Shown here piece by piece: positions 4,313-24,271 of a DNA stretch of 45,999 bases (positions within the stretch are counted from its first letter, which is position 1; the number at the start of each line of letters is the position of its first letter). Location of the stretch: UHGV virus genome UHGV-1315733; one strand, given 5' to 3'. A model generated the notes under the pieces. The model made no database searches. It was not told the origin of the DNA and saw only the letters and a list, made by a program, of their open reading frames with translations. The translations under genes were made by a program, and so were the position numbers. Source of the stretch: a virus.

Positions 4313-7300
4313 TTAAAAGTTCCTCCTGTTCCTTAATCAAGGTTTCTAGTTCTGCGTTTAATATGTTCTCAGGGCTTTCAGGTAATTTTTCTTCCCTGTC
4401 AACATCTTCCTCAAGATTTACATATTCGTAATCTTTCTGTTTTGCTTTCAGTTCCCATGCAAATTTCAGATTCGGAGTTCCGTGCACAATGAAGTAATTC
4501 TCTTCCTTCTTTTCAATCCACAAATCTCCTTTCCCTTCTTTCTGCAAGAATACCTGGTACTCAATGCGTGTTGTTACGGTTTCCGTGAAGATATCTCCGA
4601 TTTCAACGATACATTCACCGTTCTCATCAGTAATTCCTTCACCGATGTCTCCAAACATTGGCGAAGCTGTTTCGTAGCAATATTGAAGTCTGTTTGAATA
4701 ATTCTCTGTTGGAACAACACGGTTTTTAGTTCCAGTTGTTTTTATTTCTCTTGGGCTTATATCTACATAATCATTAATATAATTACTTCCATTAATTCTA
4801 ATTGAAAGGCAACCTGTTGAGTTCTCGCTAATGCTGAATGTGTACGATTTTACTGTTGACATTGCATCAGACCATCCTTGTAAATCCTCAGCCCATCCAA
4901 TAGAGAAGCATTCCGGGGAAATTGAAGAACCGTATCCCCTTCCATTATTAGATGCTTTCATTCTCAAACCATGAAACCAACCGCCCATAAGGTCAACAAC
5001 CATACTGTCTGATGCGAGAAGTCCCATATTAGTATTATCAATATGCATCCCCATGCTTCCGATAGTGAATATTTCTTTCGAATTGTTACGGCCAACGATG
5101 AGCGCAGACGCTTTTTCTTTATCTAAATATATCGTGCTTCCATAAATCGAGCCTTTTTTGATGTTCAGTCCATCTTTATCCCATTTACCAACTTCCGCTC
5201 CTATGGCATCTAGTATCTGTATTGAGCCATTTTCATTGTTTACACCTCCCAATGTAAGTGTACCGCCCTTGCCATAAGAGAAGTTGATATACAACTGATC
5301 GCCTTGCATATATATCCCTTGTTTCTTCCCGTTATCAGTAAGTCTGTTAAACACTTCTTCGGAAGTCAGAGATTTGTTTAGCTTTTCTACAGCTGAATCG
5401 TCAGTATACTTAGTGGCTTTTGTCCAATCAGAAGAAACATAGTTGCCGCTAGCTCTTGCGGTTTTACATCTCATCAAGTCACCAGTGTCTCCTTGCGTCC
5501 AAAGGTCGCCAACATCATAAGGTGGCACAGGAGTTGTAATAAAGTTTCTTCTCTTACCGTCTGCGGTATCTTGCGCCTTTGATGCTGTTTCCATCGCAGA
5601 TACGATGTCTGCATCTTTCACTCTCACCCACTGATAAGATGTATCGACTTTCATATAGCGGTAAGTGAAACCTTTGTTCTTCCAAAAGAAGAGGTCACCA
5701 ACATGCTTCTGTCTTTCGTAAGCTGTAGTCCACTCAGATGCTGGATGGTTTGAATTCGCAGGCTCATAATCGTAATAGTACGTATCAATCTTTCCATCAA
5801 TCTGATTTTGGATATCTTCAATTTTCGGATCATAAATGTTTTCGATGAAGTCCGTTACTGTAGAATCGTCTGTATAATTATCTTTCTTCTGCCAATCACT
5901 TGCTACATACTCACCAGTTTCTCTGTCCTTTAGGCAGACAAGGATATCATTTCCAGTGAAATACAAATCATCCACGCTATACGGTGGCTTTGGCTGTGTT
6001 GAGAAAATCTGCGCTTTACCGTCAATCTCATCGAATACAGAGTCTGGAACTGGCATTTCTTCCCAATTTCCGCTTCTGTAGATGTATTCATCACCAGTTT
6101 TGGAATTCTTCCACAAGTCACCCTCATGAGTTGCTTTCTCGGTTTCCACAGTGATTGTGATATTTTTTCCACTAACATCTAAGATTTCATTCCCGTTTAT
6201 ATCGCAAAGAGGCTGTGTTTCTTTTCCAGTCCAATTAAGTGACGGGTCAGTAGGTTGGAACCAAGTTTCTATCTTCTGATCAATCTGATTCTTGATATTC
6301 TCAAGGTCGGCAGCATAAGTATTCTTAACAAAGTTATTGATTGCGGAATCATCTGTGTACTTGGTAGCCTTAACCCAATCGGATGCGACATAATCTCCGC
6401 TCTGACGCGAGGTCACGCATCGCATAAGATCTCCGTTTGTGCCTTGTACCCACAAGTCATCCTTATCATAAGGTGGATAAGGAGTTACACTGAATACACG
6501 TTTCTTTGTGACAGCAAGGTTCTTTGCAGCTTTCGCATCCGCATCACTTAACTTTGACCACGCTGAACCGTTCCAACGCATTGTTTCTTCGGTTTTTGAG
6601 TTGTACCATAAGTCGCCAGTATGCTTTGCTTTCAGTTCAGCTGTTGTCCATGAAGCTGCCGGATCAGCAGATTGATTGTATGTCTCAATCTTGCCATCAA
6701 TCTGATTCTGCAAGTCCTTATTGACTGTTTCCAGCTCTTTCTGTACCTCATTGGCTCTTGTATCGTCCGTGTACTTTGATGCCTTTTCCCAGTCTGATGC
6801 CGAGAAAGAAGCCGATTCACTTCTTGCAACACAGCAACGCATGATGTCACCATCATCACCCTGTACCCAAAGGTCACCTATGTCGTAAGGTGGCTGTGGA
6901 GTCACTACAAAGACTCTACGTTTATGATCTGCTGTATCCTGTGCTTTCTCCGCAGCTGCAAGTGCTTTTGAAATATCTGTATCCTGTACGATCTGCCACT
7001 TCCAAACCGCTCCGTCCTGTAAGAATCGGTAGGAATATCCAGTGGACTTCCAGAAGAAGAGATCACCTTCGTGGTTTTTTCTCTGCTCGTTGGTTGTCCA
7101 ATTCACAGCCGGTTCGTTCTGTAAGCTAGGTTCGTGGTCATAGAACCATGTTTCAATCTGTCCATCAATCTGACTCTGTAATTCCGCAATCTTTGGATCA
7201 TATACCGCAGAAATGAAGGTATTCAGTCCGCTATCGTCAGTGTACTTGGTTTTCTTCTGCCAGTCGGACTTTACACAACTTCCTTTATCTCTGCTTTCTA

Positions 7301-18626: not shown

Positions 18627-19853
18627 TTAACTCTTTTTCGCACTTTCGTATCTTCTTGCAGCAGCTGCACTCTTCATAGCTTGCTTTCTGTCCCACCGTG
18701 CGACCTTCAACCGTTCTGCATACTCTCTTAGGTCATTCTCTTCGCAAAATGCACTGTACCGCTTGTTCTGAAGCTTCAATGTGTGAGCCTTGCGGTCCAA
18801 CATATTCTGCAATTCAAACCTTGCCTTATCATCCTTACAGTTATCAACAGCTGTCTGCAAGTTCTGTATCTTCCGCTTGGTGTCACGGATCCTACGCTCC
18901 TGTGCTCTCTGTTTCTTCTGCAATTCCTCAACCTTATGGTTGTCAGCAAGAGTTATCTTCTTATCCTCATAAGGATTGTTCACTCCGTCACCACTTCCAA
19001 ATGAGTGCCTACAGTTCCAACCGCACAAGCCTTCACCAGTTCCGAAACCAGTTGTCTTAACGAAGTCCGGGAATCTCTTATCCTTTCCACTTCGTGAGTA
19101 GAACCGTCCTTGCCACCACAAGTGATTGCCAGGATTCATTCCGCCATTACCAGTACGTGCTCCTAAGTGAGCAGACACAAGAACGGTATCCCAGTTCATT
19201 TCTTCCATTCTCTTCATGGAGATGTCGGCAGCTGCTTGTCCCACTCCTGTCCTCACGATCATCATCGTTGCTGACTCAATGCTCATTCTGTACCCAGTAG
19301 GATAGTTCACTTTGAGTCCTACTTCTGTGATATTGTTAATTACATCTCTGACCGCTTGTGTGTACGATACTGCACCGGTAGACACAAGATGGTAGGCATT
19401 GTCCATCTGATTGATGAAAGTCCTCTGTGCATCCAGTGCTGTGGTCCGTGTGAAGTTGTTCCATTCTCCGGCAGTAGCAAGGTAATCTCTCTCAAGGATC
19501 CTGAGCATGGTTGGAGATTGCATCAGTGCTGTTGGAGTGAGTCCGGCTGCAATATACACAGCATCATCCCATTTCAGAGTATTGATACCAGCATCGACAA
19601 ATGCATCCTTAATCTCTTTCTGCTGTAACTTTGTCTTGTCCGCTATTTCCTTCTGGATATCCTCTAGCAGTTCACCAGACTCTTGAAGCACTTGTATCTG
19701 CCATCGGTCTGTCTGTGTCAGCAGATAGTCCTCACCTCTGCCGAGTCTCTTCATGATTCTCTCGATGATCATGTCCATAATAGTGCGATGAAGGGACGAA
19801 GATATCTCCTCCGCCCCTTCTGTTATTCTTTGTAAGTATTCAGGTGTTAGCAT
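18627..19853 (-). CDS. Head morphogenesis protein (SPP1 gp7/Mu F-like minor head protein)
   Basis: 408 aa. Position after the portal region. C-terminal basic coiled-coil tail. Confidence 0.6.
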   Translation of the reverse strand: MLTPEYLQRITEGAEEISSSLHRTIMDMIIERIMKRLGRGEDYLLTQTDRWQIQVLQESGELLEDIQKEIADKTKLQQKEIKDAFVDAGINTLKWDDAVYIAAGLTPTALMQSPTMLRILERDYLATAGEWNNFTRTTALDAQRTFINQMDNAYHLVSTGAVSYTQAVRDVINNITEVGLKVNYPTGYRMSIESATMMIVRTGVGQAAADISMKRMEEMNWDTVLVSAHLGARTGNGGMNPGNHLWWQGRFYSRSGKDKRFPDFVKTTGFGTGEGLCGWNCRHSFGSGDGVNNPYEDKKITLADNHKVEELQKKQRAQERRIRDTKRKIQNLQTAVDNCKDDKARFELQNMLDRKAHTLKLQNKRYSAFCEENDLREYAERLKVARWDRKQAMKSAAAARRYESAKKS

Positions 19854-19970
19854 TATTCCTCACCGTCTTTGTCATTTTTATCATCCTTTGTAATGATTGC
19901 AAAAAGCAAAATTGTTACGCAAATGATAAGAATATTCATAGTTGATACTGCCATATTGTCACCGCCTTGT

Positions 19971-20240
19971 TTATTCCTCTTTATGGCATGTATTGTAGAT
20001 TTTCACGTACACGTCCTCAAAAAGTTCCTGTTTATCTCCATTATATGTATATTCCGCGTAGAGTCCATCTCCACTGAACGTTGTGCTGGCAAGACATTTG
20101 TAATTCTGTAAAGTCTTGCAACTCCAAACAATATATACATTACTCAAATCAATTTCCGCATCTGGTCGGTTCTTCCGATACCATTCAACAAGCTTCTTTT
20201 TGCATACACTCTGAAAGTGATCCATTCCTGTGATAATCAT
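19971..20240 (-). CDS. Hypothetical protein (89 aa); member of the accessory island
   Basis: ORF only. Confidence 0.4.
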   Translation of the reverse strand: MIITGMDHFQSVCKKKLVEWYRKNRPDAEIDLSNVYIVWSCKTLQNYKCLASTTFSGDGLYAEYTYNGDKQELFEDVYVKIYNTCHKEE

Positions 20241-20242
20241 GA

Positions 20243-20569
20243 TTAAGCCTCCTCATAAATAATATCCAAACCATAAGCAACCGCAGCATCATGCTCAATC
20301 TTACATCCTCTTGCATTCTCCCAGCCTTTACAGAAGTACGCTGCATGGCACAGAGACATATTCTCTAAGGATTTAGCAAGGAAACATAATGGAATCTGAA
20401 CTACTCCACGTTCTTTCATAGATTCATTGCTGTACCATTCATCTGTGAAAAGAGTATTTACAATCTCATACCCTTTTCCCTCAAGAACCTTAATTGCCTT
20501 CTCTCTTGTTGCTACGATTTCTTCATCAGTCTTTCCAGCCATTGGCTGACTTAACATTGCTTTCTTCAT
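20243..20569 (-). CDS. DUF4406-like protein (nucleoside 2-deoxyribosyltransferase-like fold)
   Basis: Start trimmed to MKKAMLSQPMAGK, which follows RBS AGGAGG at 7 nt. The 'LSQPMAG' motif resembles the DUF4406/NDT-like 'YLAGPM.G' motif. Confidence 0.4.
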   Translation of the reverse strand: MKKAMLSQPMAGKTDEEIVATREKAIKVLEGKGYEIVNTLFTDEWYSNESMKERGVVQIPLCFLAKSLENMSLCHAAYFCKGWENARGCKIEHDAAVAYGLDIIYEEA

Positions 20570-20580
20570 AATTAGTCCTC

Positions 20581-21084
20581 CTACTCTGCAAACACCCAAT
20601 CTTCAGCAAGCATATCTGCTTGTGTCGGAACATACTGCTCACATTTTGTGTAATAAGAATCATTTTTAGATTCACATGCTTTTATGATTGAGTATTCCTC
20701 GCTATCAAATTTGTCTTCCCTTCTACCATCAAGGCAAGCTCCGAAAGTGGCATATGCAAGTTGTAAGAACATGTCTGACTCAAACGTCAATCGTCTTACA
20801 CGTTTCTTGTTCTTCACCTGCTTCATAGCTTCGTGAAATGAAAATGTATTCATGCCACCAAGTGCCGGACAGTTCGTGTCATCCGCAAAAATCCATTCAT
20901 CGGAACAAATATTGGAAAATGTATAATCTACACACTCAGTTCTACGAACATCAATGTCCTTACCGTCTTTCGTATGCATCAGAATTGACTGTGCCGGAAT
21001 ACACCAGTACCAGTATCCAGCCCATGACGGAAGTTTCACCTTTGCCCCATGCTTCATTGCTTCAAATGCTTCTTTAAATGTCAT
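20581..21084 (-). CDS. Tandem DUF2829 (Tad2-like, Thoeris anti-defence family) protein
   Basis: N-terminus MTFKEAFEAMKHGAKV...W.G and C-terminus ...ADMLAEDWVFAE match the DUF2829 hallmarks. An internal second 'MNTFSFHEAMKQVKNKKRV' suggests two fused domains. From memory of the family, not searched. Confidence 0.45.
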   Translation of the reverse strand: MTFKEAFEAMKHGAKVKLPSWAGYWYWCIPAQSILMHTKDGKDIDVRRTECVDYTFSNICSDEWIFADDTNCPALGGMNTFSFHEAMKQVKNKKRVRRLTFESDMFLQLAYATFGACLDGRREDKFDSEEYSIIKACESKNDSYYTKCEQYVPTQADMLAEDWVFAE

Positions 21085-21099
21085 CGTTCATTTCTCCTT

Positions 21100-21561
21100 T
21101 CATTTTGCTACTTTTACCATGCATCTAACTTCTTCACTTTCGTATTCTCGCTCCATTACTAGTTCATATTTTTCAACTTCGTAAAGGACATTCCCGATTA
21201 TATTGTGCTTTTTCTTGTATTCATAGATGGCTTGCTCTATAAAAAAGTTTATTTCTTCTCGGTTCTGCTTTTCTGCATTAGCATACAGCTCATCTCCGTG
21301 AAGTAACTTACTGCCACTTATTTTTGATTTCACATTGAACGCAAAAGCGACTTCCGGTATATATATTTCTGAACATGTAATAACAGCATTTATTCCAATA
21401 TTTGTTTCAAATGGCTTGGCCAAAATATCAGAAGGCATTATTACACGTTTTTCAGGAAATCTTATCTTGAATACCACATACTGCGTAATCGCAGTGATTA
21501 TTGTTCTTTTTTCTTCCTTGTACACATCAGGATGAAGAAATTTTAATATTGGCAGTATCAT
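21100..21561 (-). CDS. Hypothetical protein (154 aa)
   Basis: ORF 21100..21681 trimmed. Its N-terminal 40 codons are the translated tRNA gene. MILPILKF follows an AGGAGA RBS. Confidence 0.45.
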   Translation of the reverse strand: MILPILKFLHPDVYKEEKRTIITAITQYVVFKIRFPEKRVIMPSDILAKPFETNIGINAVITCSEIYIPEVAFAFNVKSKISGSKLLHGDELYANAEKQNREEINFFIEQAIYEYKKKHNIIGNVLYEVEKYELVMEREYESEEVRCMVKVAK

Positions 21562-21587
21562 TTCGCAATCACTCTCCTTGATCGAAA

Positions 21588-21659
21588 TCGGAACGGGAGG
21601 TATCGAACCTCCGACACGCTGGATATAAGCCAGTTGCTCTACCACTGAGCTACGTTCCG
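21588..21659 (-). tRNA. tRNA, anticodon UAU (Ile2-type, reads AUA)
   Basis: Minus strand CGGAACG-TA-GCTC-AGTGGTA-GAGC-A-ACTGG-CTTATAT-CCAGC-GTGTC-GGAGG-TTCGATA-CCTCC-CGTTCCG-A. Full cloverleaf with one A27.C43 mismatch, U33, A37 and discriminator A. No CCA is encoded. Confidence 0.7.
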
Positions 21660-22378
21660 TTAGCAGGTGGACAGTAATCAAACCACCTCTGCTACGGTTC
21701 TTTAGACAGTACGAAGAAAATAATAAACACTGTGACTATCGTGCAAAATGTGAATATTAAATCTTTGACGGAACTCCGCAGCTAAAATCCGTCTGTTACA
21801 TTTTTTCAAACACAATTAGGTCTTCACCTTATTCAATCATGGTAAAAGTCATATTCTGCCACTGTGATGATAGGTCTGAGCTTCTGAGAGCGACTCTTGG
21901 CTTCCTACCACTGTCAAAGCACACATGGGATTGATACCCATAAATTTCACGGTTCTTTCAGATAATGTTTTCGCCTATTTTGCACCCTTTGCATTGCTCA
22001 TATCGAAATTGCTTATTTAAGAACTTGCCATACCGCTACTTTAACGAACCTCTTGTGTTATACTCCGATTTCTCGGATTCAAGGCAAATCAGCTTATTGA
22101 GAATTTCCAGTTAGTCCGTAGTCTCTCACACCACTCACATCACTGGATTATTTCTGCACCGCAGACGTCTATTAATCACTGACCACAAGGATTCTGCATT
22201 TGACTTCTCTATGATGATACACTGCAAGGCATTGTTGATGGTTTCCGTCTTCACCAATGGAATCACTCCCACTAGAAAGAATCGGCTTATCCAATATCTC
22301 GAACAAGCCTATCTCGTCACCATTGCATCTCGGCATGACTGAAAAATCACTCTTCACCGAGGTAATCATATTTGAAAA

Positions 22379-22456
22379 TAGCCGTATAAGGATTTGAACC
22401 TCAATCTTTCACTTGAGTAGGGTAGAATGAACGCTTTGCCGTTAAGCTATACGGCT
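22379..22456 (-). pseudogene. Degenerate tRNA-like sequence (good acceptor, D-arm and T-arm; no foldable anticodon arm)
   Basis: AGCCGTA-TA-GCTT-AACGGCA-AAGC...TGAGG-TTCAAAT-CCTTA-TACGGCT. The central 28 nt do not form a 5-bp stem with a 7-nt loop. Confidence 0.35.
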
Positions 22457-22520
22457 TCCAACTACACTGTAGTAAGGAAAAATTTGTTATGAAAAAGATT
22501 TTTTCTCCGAGTTTCGGAGA

Positions 22521-22594
22521 GAGCTACCGTTCGGATTCGAACCGAAACCCTGTTGATTAAAAGTCAACCGCTCTACCATTTGAGCTATGATAGC
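22521..22594 (-). tRNA. tRNA-Lys (anticodon UUU)
   Basis: GCTATCA-TA-GCTC-AAATGGTA-GAGC-G-GTTGA-CTTTTAA-TCAAC-AGGGT-TTCGG-TTCGAAT-CCGAA-CGGTAGC-T. One A.C mismatch at the base of the acceptor stem. Confidence 0.6.
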
Positions 22595-22598
22595 TTAA

Positions 22599-22635
22599 AG
22601 CATCGAGCGTGAACCAAGAAAAAACGCTCGATGCT
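22599..22635. terminator. Perfect 11-bp inverted repeat hairpin between the tRNA array and the portal gene
   Basis: agcatcgagcg-tgaaccaagaaaaaa-cgctcgatgct followed by atattatttt. Could terminate either strand. Confidence 0.35.
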
Positions 22636-22861
22636 ATATTATTTTAGGTTCCCGGGGAGATGACAAGAAACCGGGAATAGGCCTGTCCCGGTTATGCTCC
22701 GAGTCTGTGTCCTACTAAGGAACAAGCCTTAACCGCCATCTGACGGTTAGTAGCAATATTTATAGTGCTGTACATTGCACTGTCAAGGAATGAAAAACGA
22801 ATGAACTTTTCGTCCTCAAGTACATAGTACCGTATTCGCTTGCTCTCATTGTCCCCATAAT

Positions 22862-24271
22862 TTACTCATCTTGGAATTTTTCAAAGAGAGTTTCGCCTTT
22901 GTCACTGGCTTCTTCAATCATTGCTTTCGCTTCTGGCTCTGTCATTCCTTCAAACTTCACGAAGTACATCCATGCCGGTACTTTTCCCTGTACTACATAG
23001 TTCCACCAACGTGCACGATCATCTTCAAGGTTGTACACAAGGTCTTCAAACTCGCAAGCTGTCTGATATCCGGAAGCCGGAATTGTTCCGTTCGCTGTTC
23101 CTGTAGCGTAGAGGATATATAAGATTCTGTGGATAACTCCATCATGATTCTTTCCATCTAAGATTGTACGGAATGACTCAATTGTGTGCAGCGTTCTTCT
23201 ATCGTCTGACTCCACTTGTGTTGCTGTCTGAATTCCTCTTGACTCATCAAACGAGAAGTATCCATTAGAGAATCCACACTTGTATCCGATGATGGATAGA
23301 TAGAAGTTGATGGCAGAAGTTCTTTCGGCTACCAATATAGTCGGTACATGTTCTTGAATCGTACCATCTGCATCCACTCCCATTTCAAGTCCTTGCACGA
23401 ATCGAGGGAGCTTGATTCCATTCTGATTAGCATATTGGATTACTGTCTGTGATACAAAAGTAACGTGCTGGCTGTCTTCCTGTTCGTCCCCCATCTTATT
23501 GAGTGCGATATCGAGCCATCTCAACTCTTCAATGCATTCAGCAAATACCGGTACAGTAAGAGGAGACTCCTTGTCGATTGCATTCGCATAAGGATTTCGC
23601 CAGTACACAAACAGCGGATATTCCAATCCTCTTACTTCCACTTCCGGAAGTATATCTTTCCACTCATCTACTTTCTCTAGGGAAATTTCAGATCCGATAC
23701 GGTTCTTATCTTCACTCTTGAATGCTTTTGATGAAATCTTATAGACTCTTTCACCATTCACATCCTCAAATCTGTGATATTCTGCTTTTGTGTAGTACCT
23801 GTTTCTCTTTTTGATGTACGAGAAGAACACTGCTGCAAGTACATCACCGTTGGTATTGGTGTCTGTGATGATGAAGTAGTCCGGATCCAGGAACTCAATT
23901 CCTTGTCCGTCCGTCTTGATCATCATTCCGCAAGTAGCACAGCTCTCTTCCTGTTTCTCTTGTAACGCGTTCAACACTTCATCAAACTTCTTCTTGAGCG
24001 CATCATTACCATCAATCTCAACATTGACATTGAACAGTGTAAGATTGGCAATCTCCCGGCAAATGACATTAGAGAACCTTGTCGGTTTGATTGTTCCGTC
24101 CATGCACCATGTCGGCAGTCCTGATCTCATGCCCTTATACAAATCTAAGGCAGTCTGCATTTCAGAAGAGCGACTAGCCTCAATTCCAAATATATCTCTT
24201 ACTTCGTTTACTCCAAACATTCTGTTAAATACCGCCTTAATTTTTTGTATTAGTCCCATTAGTATTTCCAC
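22862..24271 (-). CDS. Portal protein (SPP1 gp6-type)
   Basis: 469 aa. Immediately downstream of TerL. Length and composition fit the family. Confidence 0.7.
   Translation of the reverse strand: MEILMGLIQKIKAVFNRMFGVNEVRDIFGIEASRSSEMQTALDLYKGMRSGLPTWCMDGTIKPTRFSNVICREIANLTLFNVNVEIDGNDALKKKFDEVLNALQEKQEESCATCGMMIKTDGQGIEFLDPDYFIITDTNTNGDVLAAVFFSYIKKRNRYYTKAEYHRFEDVNGERVYKISSKAFKSEDKNRIGSEISLEKVDEWKDILPEVEVRGLEYPLFVYWRNPYANAIDKESPLTVPVFAECIEELRWLDIALNKMGDEQEDSQHVTFVSQTVIQYANQNGIKLPRFVQGLEMGVDADGTIQEHVPTILVAERTSAINFYLSIIGYKCGFSNGYFSFDESRGIQTATQVESDDRRTLHTIESFRTILDGKNHDGVIHRILYILYATGTANGTIPASGYQTACEFEDLVYNLEDDRARWWNYVVQGKVPAWMYFVKFEGMTEPEAKAMIEEASDKGETLFEKFQDE

Follow-up and report, generated by a model that had tools for sequence, protein, structure and literature searches.

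A tandem Tad2-fold gene and a ROOL RNA fused to a tRNA-like element in an accessory segment of a phage head module

The virus genome UHGV-1315733 was analysed as a stretch of 45,999 nucleotides (the window), in which the portal gene and the MuF-like gene of an SPP1-like head module are separated by a gap of 3,008 nt. An earlier reading made from the letters and their predicted open reading frames (ORFs), here called the sequence-only reading, had proposed an insert of about 2.9 kb (positions 19971-22860) between the portal and head-morphogenesis genes, carrying a tRNA array and candidate anti-defence genes. The insert is real and the items listed for it were found where they had been placed, including two tRNAs, a protein with two DUF2829 domains and a DUF4406 protein, but its largest single element, a ROOL RNA of 588 nt, had been overlooked, and this RNA changes the nature of the island. 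All components of the island are members of known families. Every gene in the region lies on the minus strand, as do all the features of the window located below.

The interpretation favoured here, to which a probability of roughly three in four is assigned, is that the segment is an accessory slot of variable content, situated within the late head operon of a gut Clostridia siphophage and made up of two modules, namely a ROOL/tRNA cassette equipped with a processing handle and an operon of four genes, one of them coding for a divergent tandem Tad2-fold protein. The identities, architecture, conservation, structural covariation and mosaicism are established by the analysis, whereas the processing mechanism, the binding of ligands and any anti-defence role are inferred. 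The first module (~22786-21588) would consist of a promoter and leader, tRNA-Lys(UUU), the handle joined to ROOL, two hairpins (HP1 and HP2) and tRNA-Ile(UAU), and the second (21561-19971) would be a tightly packed operon of orf153, the tandem Tad2 gene, a DUF4406 gene resembling nucleoside 2-deoxyribosyltransferases (NDT) and a DUF6275 gene.

The ROOL RNA was identified at 21798-22385 by cmscan against Rfam (RF03087), with a score of 369.7 bits against a gathering cut-off of 99.1 (E = 3.6e-86) and with the full length of the model covered (positions 1-574 of 574). It occupies the apparently empty 720 nt separating an odd tRNA from tRNA-Ile, and its helix P1 corresponds to TTTTCAAATATGATTACC (22378-22361). 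An ORF of 65 aa at 22172-22369 was rejected as a spurious gene, as it lies wholly within the ROOL model match and is almost certainly noncoding. ROOL has been reported as a large phage and bacterial RNA found "near" or "within" tRNA arrays (PMC5737381, PMC12286853, PMC12990946, PMC12515178), and other members form a homo-octameric nanocage as determined by cryo-electron microscopy (PMC12286853, PMC12515178). The RNA described here agrees with the ROOL RNAs of phage tRNA arrays in being a full-length, high-scoring match in a phage setting among tRNAs (PMC5737381, PMC12286853, PMC12990946). However, the position of ROOL in those arrays is given in the accessible papers only as "near" or "within tRNA arrays", whereas here the 5' neighbour is a non-decoding tRNA-like element fused base-to-base to P1, and the cassette is located inside a head-morphogenesis operon, beside a Tad2-family gene, with a hairpin (HP1) that falls outside the Rfam model. 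No match to GOLLD RNA was found in 19500-23300. GOLLD shares with ROOL the genomic and ecological setting, cage formation (PMC12286853) and physical linkage to tRNAs, but it is unrelated in sequence and fold, and its tRNAs can lie inside a linker, whereas the tRNA-like element of the window is external and at the ROOL 5' end.

A pattern built on the ROOL core recovered 120 loci from IMG/VR, in 83 of which ROOL homologues were confirmed by nhmmer. When the island and ROOL alone were compared by blastn with 50,697 GenBank phages, no ROOL-level match was obtained, and the corresponding search of plasmids returned only a match of 85 nt to the core, which Rfam later confirmed as a full ROOL in a Paraclostridium sordellii plasmid (NZ_CP080292.1, 3734-4282; 331 bits). 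This plasmid ROOL is preceded directly by a promoter-like site, is followed by an intrinsic terminator and has no tRNA on either side. The tRNA thus does not belong to the ROOL fold and instead accompanies the embedding of ROOL in polycistronic arrays. The plasmid ROOL is not annotated in its record, and the core match is also present in four other P. sordellii plasmids. Eight distant phages (with portal ~35% and MuF ~47–56% identical where these genes fall inside the locus) carry ROOL just upstream of the scaffold gene, and between MuF and scaffold where MuF is inside the locus, which indicates that ROOL sits in head modules elsewhere too. The base-to-base flanks of ROOL in these phages are a tRNA-Met on the 5' side and a tRNA-Ser on the 3' side.

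The element at 22379-22456 had been described in the sequence-only reading as a degenerate tRNA. A tRNA-shaped element of 78 nt is indeed present at this position (52.8 bits against the Rfam tRNA model RF00005, with a cut-off of 29 bits; called "Gly acc" by ARAGORN), but far from being a free-standing gene in decay it is a structurally conserved handle fused to the 5' end of ROOL, with its discriminator base (22379) directly preceding the first base of helix P1. A decoding tRNA was taken to have an anticodon loop of 7 nt with a definable anticodon, and the loop of the handle is C-rich and 14 nt long (13 nt instead of 6 by the Rfam alignment). The anticodons proposed by ARAGORN also clash among the handles of near-identical relatives, which were called as Gly acc, Gly ccc, "???" cccc, Pyl cta or not at all, and on account of the enlarged loop and these discordant calls the handle was filed as tRNA-like and not as a tRNA. 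The cloverleaf is nonetheless maintained. Across 18 sequences of its own clade 95.6% of cells were paired and compensatory changes were found in 11 of 21 pairs, a result matched by none of 500 shuffles, with slid controls at 34–53%, and the acceptor, D, anticodon and T stems are all kept by compensatory change. On these comparisons the handle is structurally selected but very unlikely to decode.

The junction between a tRNA or tRNA-like element and ROOL is not particular to the window. At 49 of the IMG/VR ROOL loci the tRNA called by ARAGORN ends 7–10 nt inside the start of the Rfam model, i.e., it abuts P1, and these 5' tRNAs represent at least 11 anticodon types (Trp, Met, Tyr, Asn, Lys x2, Gly, Gln, Glu, Ile, and one unassigned). 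Of 61 distinct flanks, 53 have a T-loop motif no further than 40 nt ahead of the ROOL 5' motif (0.01 expected), and at least six of the eight flanks lacking it retain a minihelix resembling an acceptor plus T arm; some of the loci that pass the motif test hold reduced forms, for example a mini-tRNA devoid of a D arm or a 3' tRNA half. On the other side, approximately 40 loci have a tRNA whose first nucleotide falls between −8 and +11 nt relative to the ROOL 3' end. The accessible ROOL literature, in which the key structural paper (Ling et al.) was represented by a commentary, yielded no statement on base-to-base tRNA fusion, on a decoding-dead handle or on HP1, and priority for these features is uncertain.

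All three tRNA or tRNA-like genes of the island lack an encoded CCA and have U-rich sequence behind them. The RNase Z of Bacillus prefers to cut after the discriminator of a tRNA which lacks CCA and is followed by U. In the favoured interpretation, ROOL would be freed from a polycistronic transcript by the enzymes of tRNA maturation, with RNase Z cutting after the discriminator of the CCA-less handle to leave the 5' end of ROOL exactly at P1, and with RNase P making the 3' cut at those loci where a tRNA starts at the ROOL 3' end. The handle, with its four stems intact, its 14-nt loop and decoding very unlikely, would be kept for processing only, and HP1 may stand where the abutting 3' tRNA sits in other ROOL loci. 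Punctuation by tRNAs and 3'-end processing by tRNA-like elements are familiar from mitochondrial polycistrons and from MALAT1-mascRNA. The likeness to these systems is one of operation only, in that a tRNA-shaped element abuts a large non-tRNA RNA whose end would be set by tRNA endonucleases; here the setting is a bacterial phage, the cleavage is predicted, and the handle lies 5' of the large RNA, which would call for RNase Z rather than RNase P. A wider proposal is that phage ROOL is made in general by such "tRNA punctuation", that is, transcribed within tRNA arrays and cut out by RNase Z and RNase P, with the 5' tRNA now a decoding-dead handle and HP1 replacing the 3' tRNA in this particular phage lineage, and that, as the sharing of a hypervariable slot with domain-shuffled Tad2-family alleles would indicate, it serves an arms-race role and not a housekeeping one, for example the protection or sequestration of tRNAs against tRNA-targeting defences. 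This proposal is tentative and, taken as a whole, rather unlikely.

The same architecture could be explained if the tRNA-like element were never cut, and were displayed on the outside of the ROOL octamer, where it would offer either a multivalent decoy to proteins that bind tRNA (anticodon nucleases and modification enzymes, for example) or a dock to the ribosome or EF-Tu. The conservation within the clade of four stems, the anticodon stem among them, and of an enlarged C-rich loop goes beyond what recognition by RNase Z or RNase P needs, and cargo RNAs fused to the ROOL 3' end, a tRNA precursor included, are reported to leave cage assembly undisturbed (PMC12515178). Relatives also retain non-decoding tRNA-like elements with 6-nt loops downstream of ROOL. 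However, the bona fide tRNAs that abut ROOL at other loci must be released in order to decode, so that the same junction geometry argues for cleavage, and the plasmid ROOL functions without any tRNA. Display of an uncut handle is consequently considered improbable.

The non-decoding downstream elements just mentioned are found in the slot of tRNA-Ile(UAU). In seven of the near-isogenic phages collected, what lies in this slot is a tRNA-like element whose anticodon loop has 6 nt (GCGAGA or GCAAGA), a second non-decoding tRNA-like element beside ROOL. In the window itself the two other tRNAs named in the sequence-only reading are canonical: tRNA-Lys(UUU) at 22521-22594 (ARAGORN ttt; 64.5 bits) and tRNA-Ile(UAU) at 21588-21659 (ARAGORN tat; 65.6 bits; fold z-score −3.1) were both accepted by ARAGORN and by Rfam, have 7-nt anticodon loops and adopt a cloverleaf as their minimum free energy structure. 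In the ORFs of the window, AUA accounts for 23% of the codons for Ile (16.8 per 1000), and AAA for 52% of those for Lys. The two genuine tRNAs would serve to decode AUA and AAA, to substitute for host tRNAs that defence nucleases have cleaved, or both; such substitution has been described for phage tRNAs (PMC10264068, PMC11555353) and is a possibility for those of the island.

The 138 nt between ROOL and the next tRNA downstream hold two conserved hairpins. HP1 (21767-21793; GACGG-ATTTTAGCTGCGGAGTT-CCGTC) was identified by a motif and stem search just 3' of ROOL, outside the Rfam ROOL model. Its loop core TTTAG[CT]TGCGG is invariant and was found 11–67 nt past ROOL in 17 distinct sequence contexts, with 12 loci carrying it besides the window, while elsewhere in the 2.15 Mb of fetched loci the motif had one match only, which forms no hairpin. 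The 12 distinct hairpins have freely covarying stems of 5–7 bp with at least eight different stem sequences, whereas a stem of at least 5 bp was found at 18% of random positions, and HP1 occurs in loci without an abutting 3' tRNA. RNAalifold predicted no structure from the ungapped HP1 alignment, in which loops of unequal length put the 3' arms out of register, and the stems were assessed by the explicit stem search and the random-position control in its place. A pairing of the HP1 loop with the leader of the handle (an 11-nt match rich in G and U) was considered and dropped, the leader being missing in other clades that bear HP1. The second hairpin, HP2 (21661-21694; TAGCA-GA-GGTGG-TTTGATTACTGT-CCACC-TGCTA), forms a leader directly 5' of tRNA-Ile and is conserved in relatives, with three covarying versions of the stem (GGTGG/CCACC, GGCGG/CCGCC and CGACAG/CTGTCG) around the loop core GATTACTG. 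Written as AGAACCGTAGCAG-stem-TTGATTACTG-stem-GCTAA, this leader hairpin was recorded at the window and at other loci, at least three in number.

At the head of the RNA cassette a putative sigma-70-like promoter was read in the sequence (22759-22786; TTGACA-16-TATAAA), having escaped the consensus scan because the rule applied there demands a second hexamer that ends in T. The scan itself returned a weak second promoter-like site between ROOL and tRNA-Ile, between HP1 and HP2 (21720-21747; TTTGCA-16-TATTAT; 9 of 12 matches). The first of these sites is overlapped by a conserved leader element of 54 nt (22728-22781; AGTGCAAYGYAC..GATAAATATTG..AACCGTCAGATGGCGGTTAAG), which opens tRNA-ROOL arrays on a variety of phage backbones, at over 25 loci in all. 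This leader, with the promoter-like site that overlaps it in the window, gives the RNA cassette the look of a transferable unit with a putative start of its own. The leader is conserved in sequence, and covariation was looked for in it with none found; as a structured RNA it was therefore not callable. It may act as a signal in the DNA, such as a promoter, an operator or a site of recombination, or else be a leader conserved in the RNA. Between the leader and tRNA-Lys, a hairpin followed by a T-run (22663-22691; CCGGGA..TCCCGG TTTCTTGT) resembles a terminator or attenuator.

A protein of 167 aa is encoded at 20581-21084. The proposal that it consists of two fused DUF2829 domains was borne out: Pfam PF11195 matches it in two stretches (66.8 bits against a cut-off of 25; E = 2.6e-18), and both the N-terminal helix motif and the C-terminal LAEDW motif are present. 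It has 1,754 homologues, and an Agathobacter protein 67% identical to it is labelled by NCBI as "Thoeris anti-defense Tad2 family protein". An AlphaFold2 model of the protein (predicted local distance difference test score, pLDDT, 83) was compared with the PDB using Foldseek, and all 21 matches with E of 1.4e-3 or lower are Tad2 structures (best E = 5e-5; probability 1.0; TM-score on the target 0.55–0.74), namely those of SPO1 Tad2, of ModTad2 bound to His-ADPR and of SptTad2 bound to cGG. The assignment to the Tad2 fold, as predicted by this model, is solid. The protein therefore shares both the Pfam family and the fold of the characterized Tad2 proteins (SPO1 Gp34.65; HgmTad2/AcrIIA7; ModTad2; SptTad2), but the solved structures are chains of ~90 aa forming homotetramers, whereas the island protein carries two domains in one chain. 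A canonical tandem-Tad2 fused in frame to DUF6275 was also observed, in a 233-aa protein from a single metagenomic contig of 784 nt; it hints weakly at a functional link between the two neighbours, or else may be an assembly artefact.

Tad2 proteins act as sponges for immune signals (bioRxiv 10.1101/2023.05.01.538930, 10.1101/2023.11.15.567273), and the sequence-only reading had named the signal of Thoeris, glycocyclic ADP-ribose (gcADPR), as the ligand. SPO1 Tad2 contacts 1''-3' gcADPR through W25, N26, W73, S76, T78 and D79 (bioRxiv 10.1101/2023.05.01.538930). In the C-terminal domain of the island allele W25 is replaced by F, N26 by E, W73 by Y and S76 by T, while D79 is kept, i.e., one of five contacts is unchanged and two are replaced by other aromatics. 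The N-terminal domain has W and A, then Y, at the contact positions and possesses an invariant set of its own. Most C-domains of the family read RKGWNGK and GWLASQADMLAEDW, where the island allele reads RRLTFESD and QYVPTQADMLAEDW; GWNG[KR] occurs in 73 of 88 distinct related proteins from the collected loci, and most of the alleles examined also have GW..SQ.DML.EDW. Thus, while the Tad2 part of the earlier suggestion stands, the replacement of contact residues makes binding of gcADPR by this allele doubtful, and it probably does not bind the canonical molecule. Another ligand is plausible, as the Tad2 family spans gcADPR, His-ADPR and cyclic dinucleotides (bioRxiv 10.1101/2023.11.15.567273). 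The tandem Tad2 protein would most likely sequester an immune signal derived from a nucleotide, probably one other than canonical gcADPR.

The tandem Tad2 gene is preceded by orf153 (21100-21561), an orphan whose most likely real start is the ATG at 21561 behind GGAGAG. This makes the product 153 aa and not the 154 aa stated in the sequence-only reading, which had otherwise listed the ORF correctly as an unknown protein. A longer ORF of 193 aa (21100-21681) was rejected as spurious, since it begins at an upstream TTG and spans tRNA-Ile; public gene calls for the family (four members) are often of this 193-aa form and likewise span the tRNA. No match for orf153 was found in Pfam, PHROG, NCBIfam or PADLOC, and only 28 homologues were found among 5.8 billion proteins. 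Its AlphaFold2 model is of low confidence (pLDDT 68), and the fold search gave no match (best E = 4).

Downstream of the tandem Tad2 gene lies that of a 108-aa protein (20243-20569) which, as had been proposed, belongs to DUF4406 and has an AGGAGG ribosome-binding site, located 7 nt ahead of its ATG. The Pfam hidden Markov model match is above the cut-off but marginal (24.9 bits against 22), and that to PHROG 355, "nucleoside 2-deoxyribosyltransferase", is clear (E = 9e-21). An alignment of 10 homologues gave S7, M10, L64 and E92 as invariant residues. Sequence and profile searches against the PDB were not significant; the profile match was to the CMP N-glycosidase 4JEN (E = 0.71), and within this non-significant match the invariant E92 is aligned with a Glu of 4JEN. 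This Glu and the N-terminal S-x-P-M-x-G motif are candidate points of likeness to the NDT superfamily, but at 108 aa the protein is much shorter. A role in nucleotide binding or anti-defence would be pure inference. In one near-identical phage (IMGVR_UViG_3300045988_017805; Tad2 99% and TerL 99%) the reading frame of DUF4406 is interrupted by a stop codon (~6516-6840; ..FCKG*ENARG..), so that the gene appears to be dispensable there. The last protein of the operon, of 89 aa (19971-20240), had been entered as unknown and is in fact a member of the DUF6275 family (PF19791, 96.4 bits against a cut-off of 22.6, E = 9e-28; PHROG 918, E = 3e-30), genes of which often adjoin tandem-Tad2 genes. No match in NCBIfam or PADLOC was found for any of the four island proteins.

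The portal gene upstream of the island (22862-24271) was identified by PHROG 533 (E = 2e-78), with no match in the Pfam search, and the MuF/gp7-like "minor capsid protein 2" gene downstream (18627-19853) by PF06152 (E = 4e-74). The G+C content of the island is 0.38–0.39, compared with 0.43–0.45 in both flanks. Contiguity of the two genes was checked at 19 loci in bacterial genomes that hold portal relatives of 33–78% identity (in Lachnospiraceae, Oscillospiraceae and further Clostridia), one of which lacks MuF. In the 18 relatives with both genes the spacing is 5–60 nt in nine and 0.1–0.6 kb in the other nine, in agreement with the earlier statement that the SPP1-like head module is normally contiguous, and none of the 18 has a tRNA or ROOL between portal and MuF. 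Upstream of MuF, a hydrophobic ORF of 33 aa (MAVSTMNILIICVTILLFAIITKDDKNDKDGEE; 19853-19954) was read in the sequence, with its stop overlapping the MuF start (TAATG). The DNA of this region is 88–100% conserved in isogenic relatives, and the ORF is a candidate coding ORF which may specify a small membrane peptide translationally coupled to MuF.

In phages with 95–100% identical TerL, portal, MuF and major capsid proteins, ROOL and tRNAs are always found in the slot, and the protein cargo differs. Tad2 alleles are 31–96% identical among these isogenic phages and orf153 alleles 46–94%, DUF4406 and DUF6275 are present or absent, and the Tad2 alleles are shuffled combinations of three N-domain and three C-domain types. 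The order tRNAs, ROOL, tandem-Tad2, DUF4406, DUF6275 also recurs at loci that do not have the structural genes of the window. With the insert absent from the site in relatives and the cargo variable among isogenic genomes, the view of the segment as an accessory (moron-type) insertion in the head module is supported. It shares with moron and anti-defence islands the flanks of conserved genes, the lower G+C content, promoter-like sites of its own and a cargo that varies in near-identical phages, but here an RNA cassette is joined with the protein cargo, and counter-defence is predicted.

The position of the four ORFs allows another explanation, in which they assist head assembly as accessory factors or are themselves packaged in the capsid, which would account for their fixed place in head modules, and the neighbourhood of ROOL and tRNAs is a coincidence of sharing a permissive slot. 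Homologues of tandem-Tad2, DUF6275 and DUF4406 follow TerL, portal and MuF in many phages that have no ROOL or tRNAs, and the ORFs are co-oriented and tightly packed in the late operon with no PADLOC match. However, the Tad2 fold is known only from sponges of immune signals, presence or absence and the wide allelic divergence among isogenic phages are typical of arms-race cargo, and relatives build heads without these genes, for which reasons a role in the head is judged distinctly unlikely.

Several observations weigh against the favoured interpretation of a two-module accessory slot, or narrow what it may claim. An obligate linkage between ROOL and tandem-Tad2 was put to a reverse test and abandoned, as ROOL was present in only nine of 79 viral loci anchored on tandem-Tad2 homologues. 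DUF6275 and/or DUF4406 lay beside Tad2 in about half of these 79 loci, usually after TerL, portal and MuF. The protein set is therefore a recurrent accessory group of head modules, independent of ROOL, with which the RNA cassette shares the slot in this lineage, and with so many phages lacking ROOL the two modules need not be functionally linked and the proteins could have a role other than defence. In the RNA cassette, the processing model is drawn from architecture, the 11-nt invariant core of the HP1 loop exceeds what a merely protective 3' hairpin needs, and the promoter calls are consensus matches whose number in the region is not above shuffle expectation. To these may be added the altered gcADPR contacts of the Tad2 allele given above, which make a sponge function uncertain.

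The account closest to the sequence-only reading, namely a plain array of two live tRNAs and one pseudogene serving AT-rich codons, together with a Tad2 sponge for gcADPR and an NDT/SLOG-like binder directed against Thoeris, draws on tRNAs, domain matches and a Tad2 fold that are all real and on the use of AUA and AAA reported above, but it is highly improbable, as it leaves out the 588-nt ROOL RNA, treats as a pseudogene an element whose compensatory changes in four stems and fixed junction with ROOL are not those of neutral decay, and assumes gcADPR contacts that are replaced in this allele and a DUF4406 protein that has no significant link to a ligand-binding structure.

For the annotation of phage genomes, the locus suggests that long "empty" gaps in tRNA clusters should be scanned for ROOL or GOLLD, and that odd tRNAs beside these RNAs are not to be written off as pseudogenes. 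The cages of ROOL and GOLLD have been solved, and for the question of what these RNAs do, the locus and its relatives give practical points of entry. The fixed coordinates of the junctions make the model of ROOL maturation precise, the near-isogenic phages that differ mainly in island cargo form a natural series for genetics, and the shuffled tandem-Tad2 alleles could reveal new ligand specificities.

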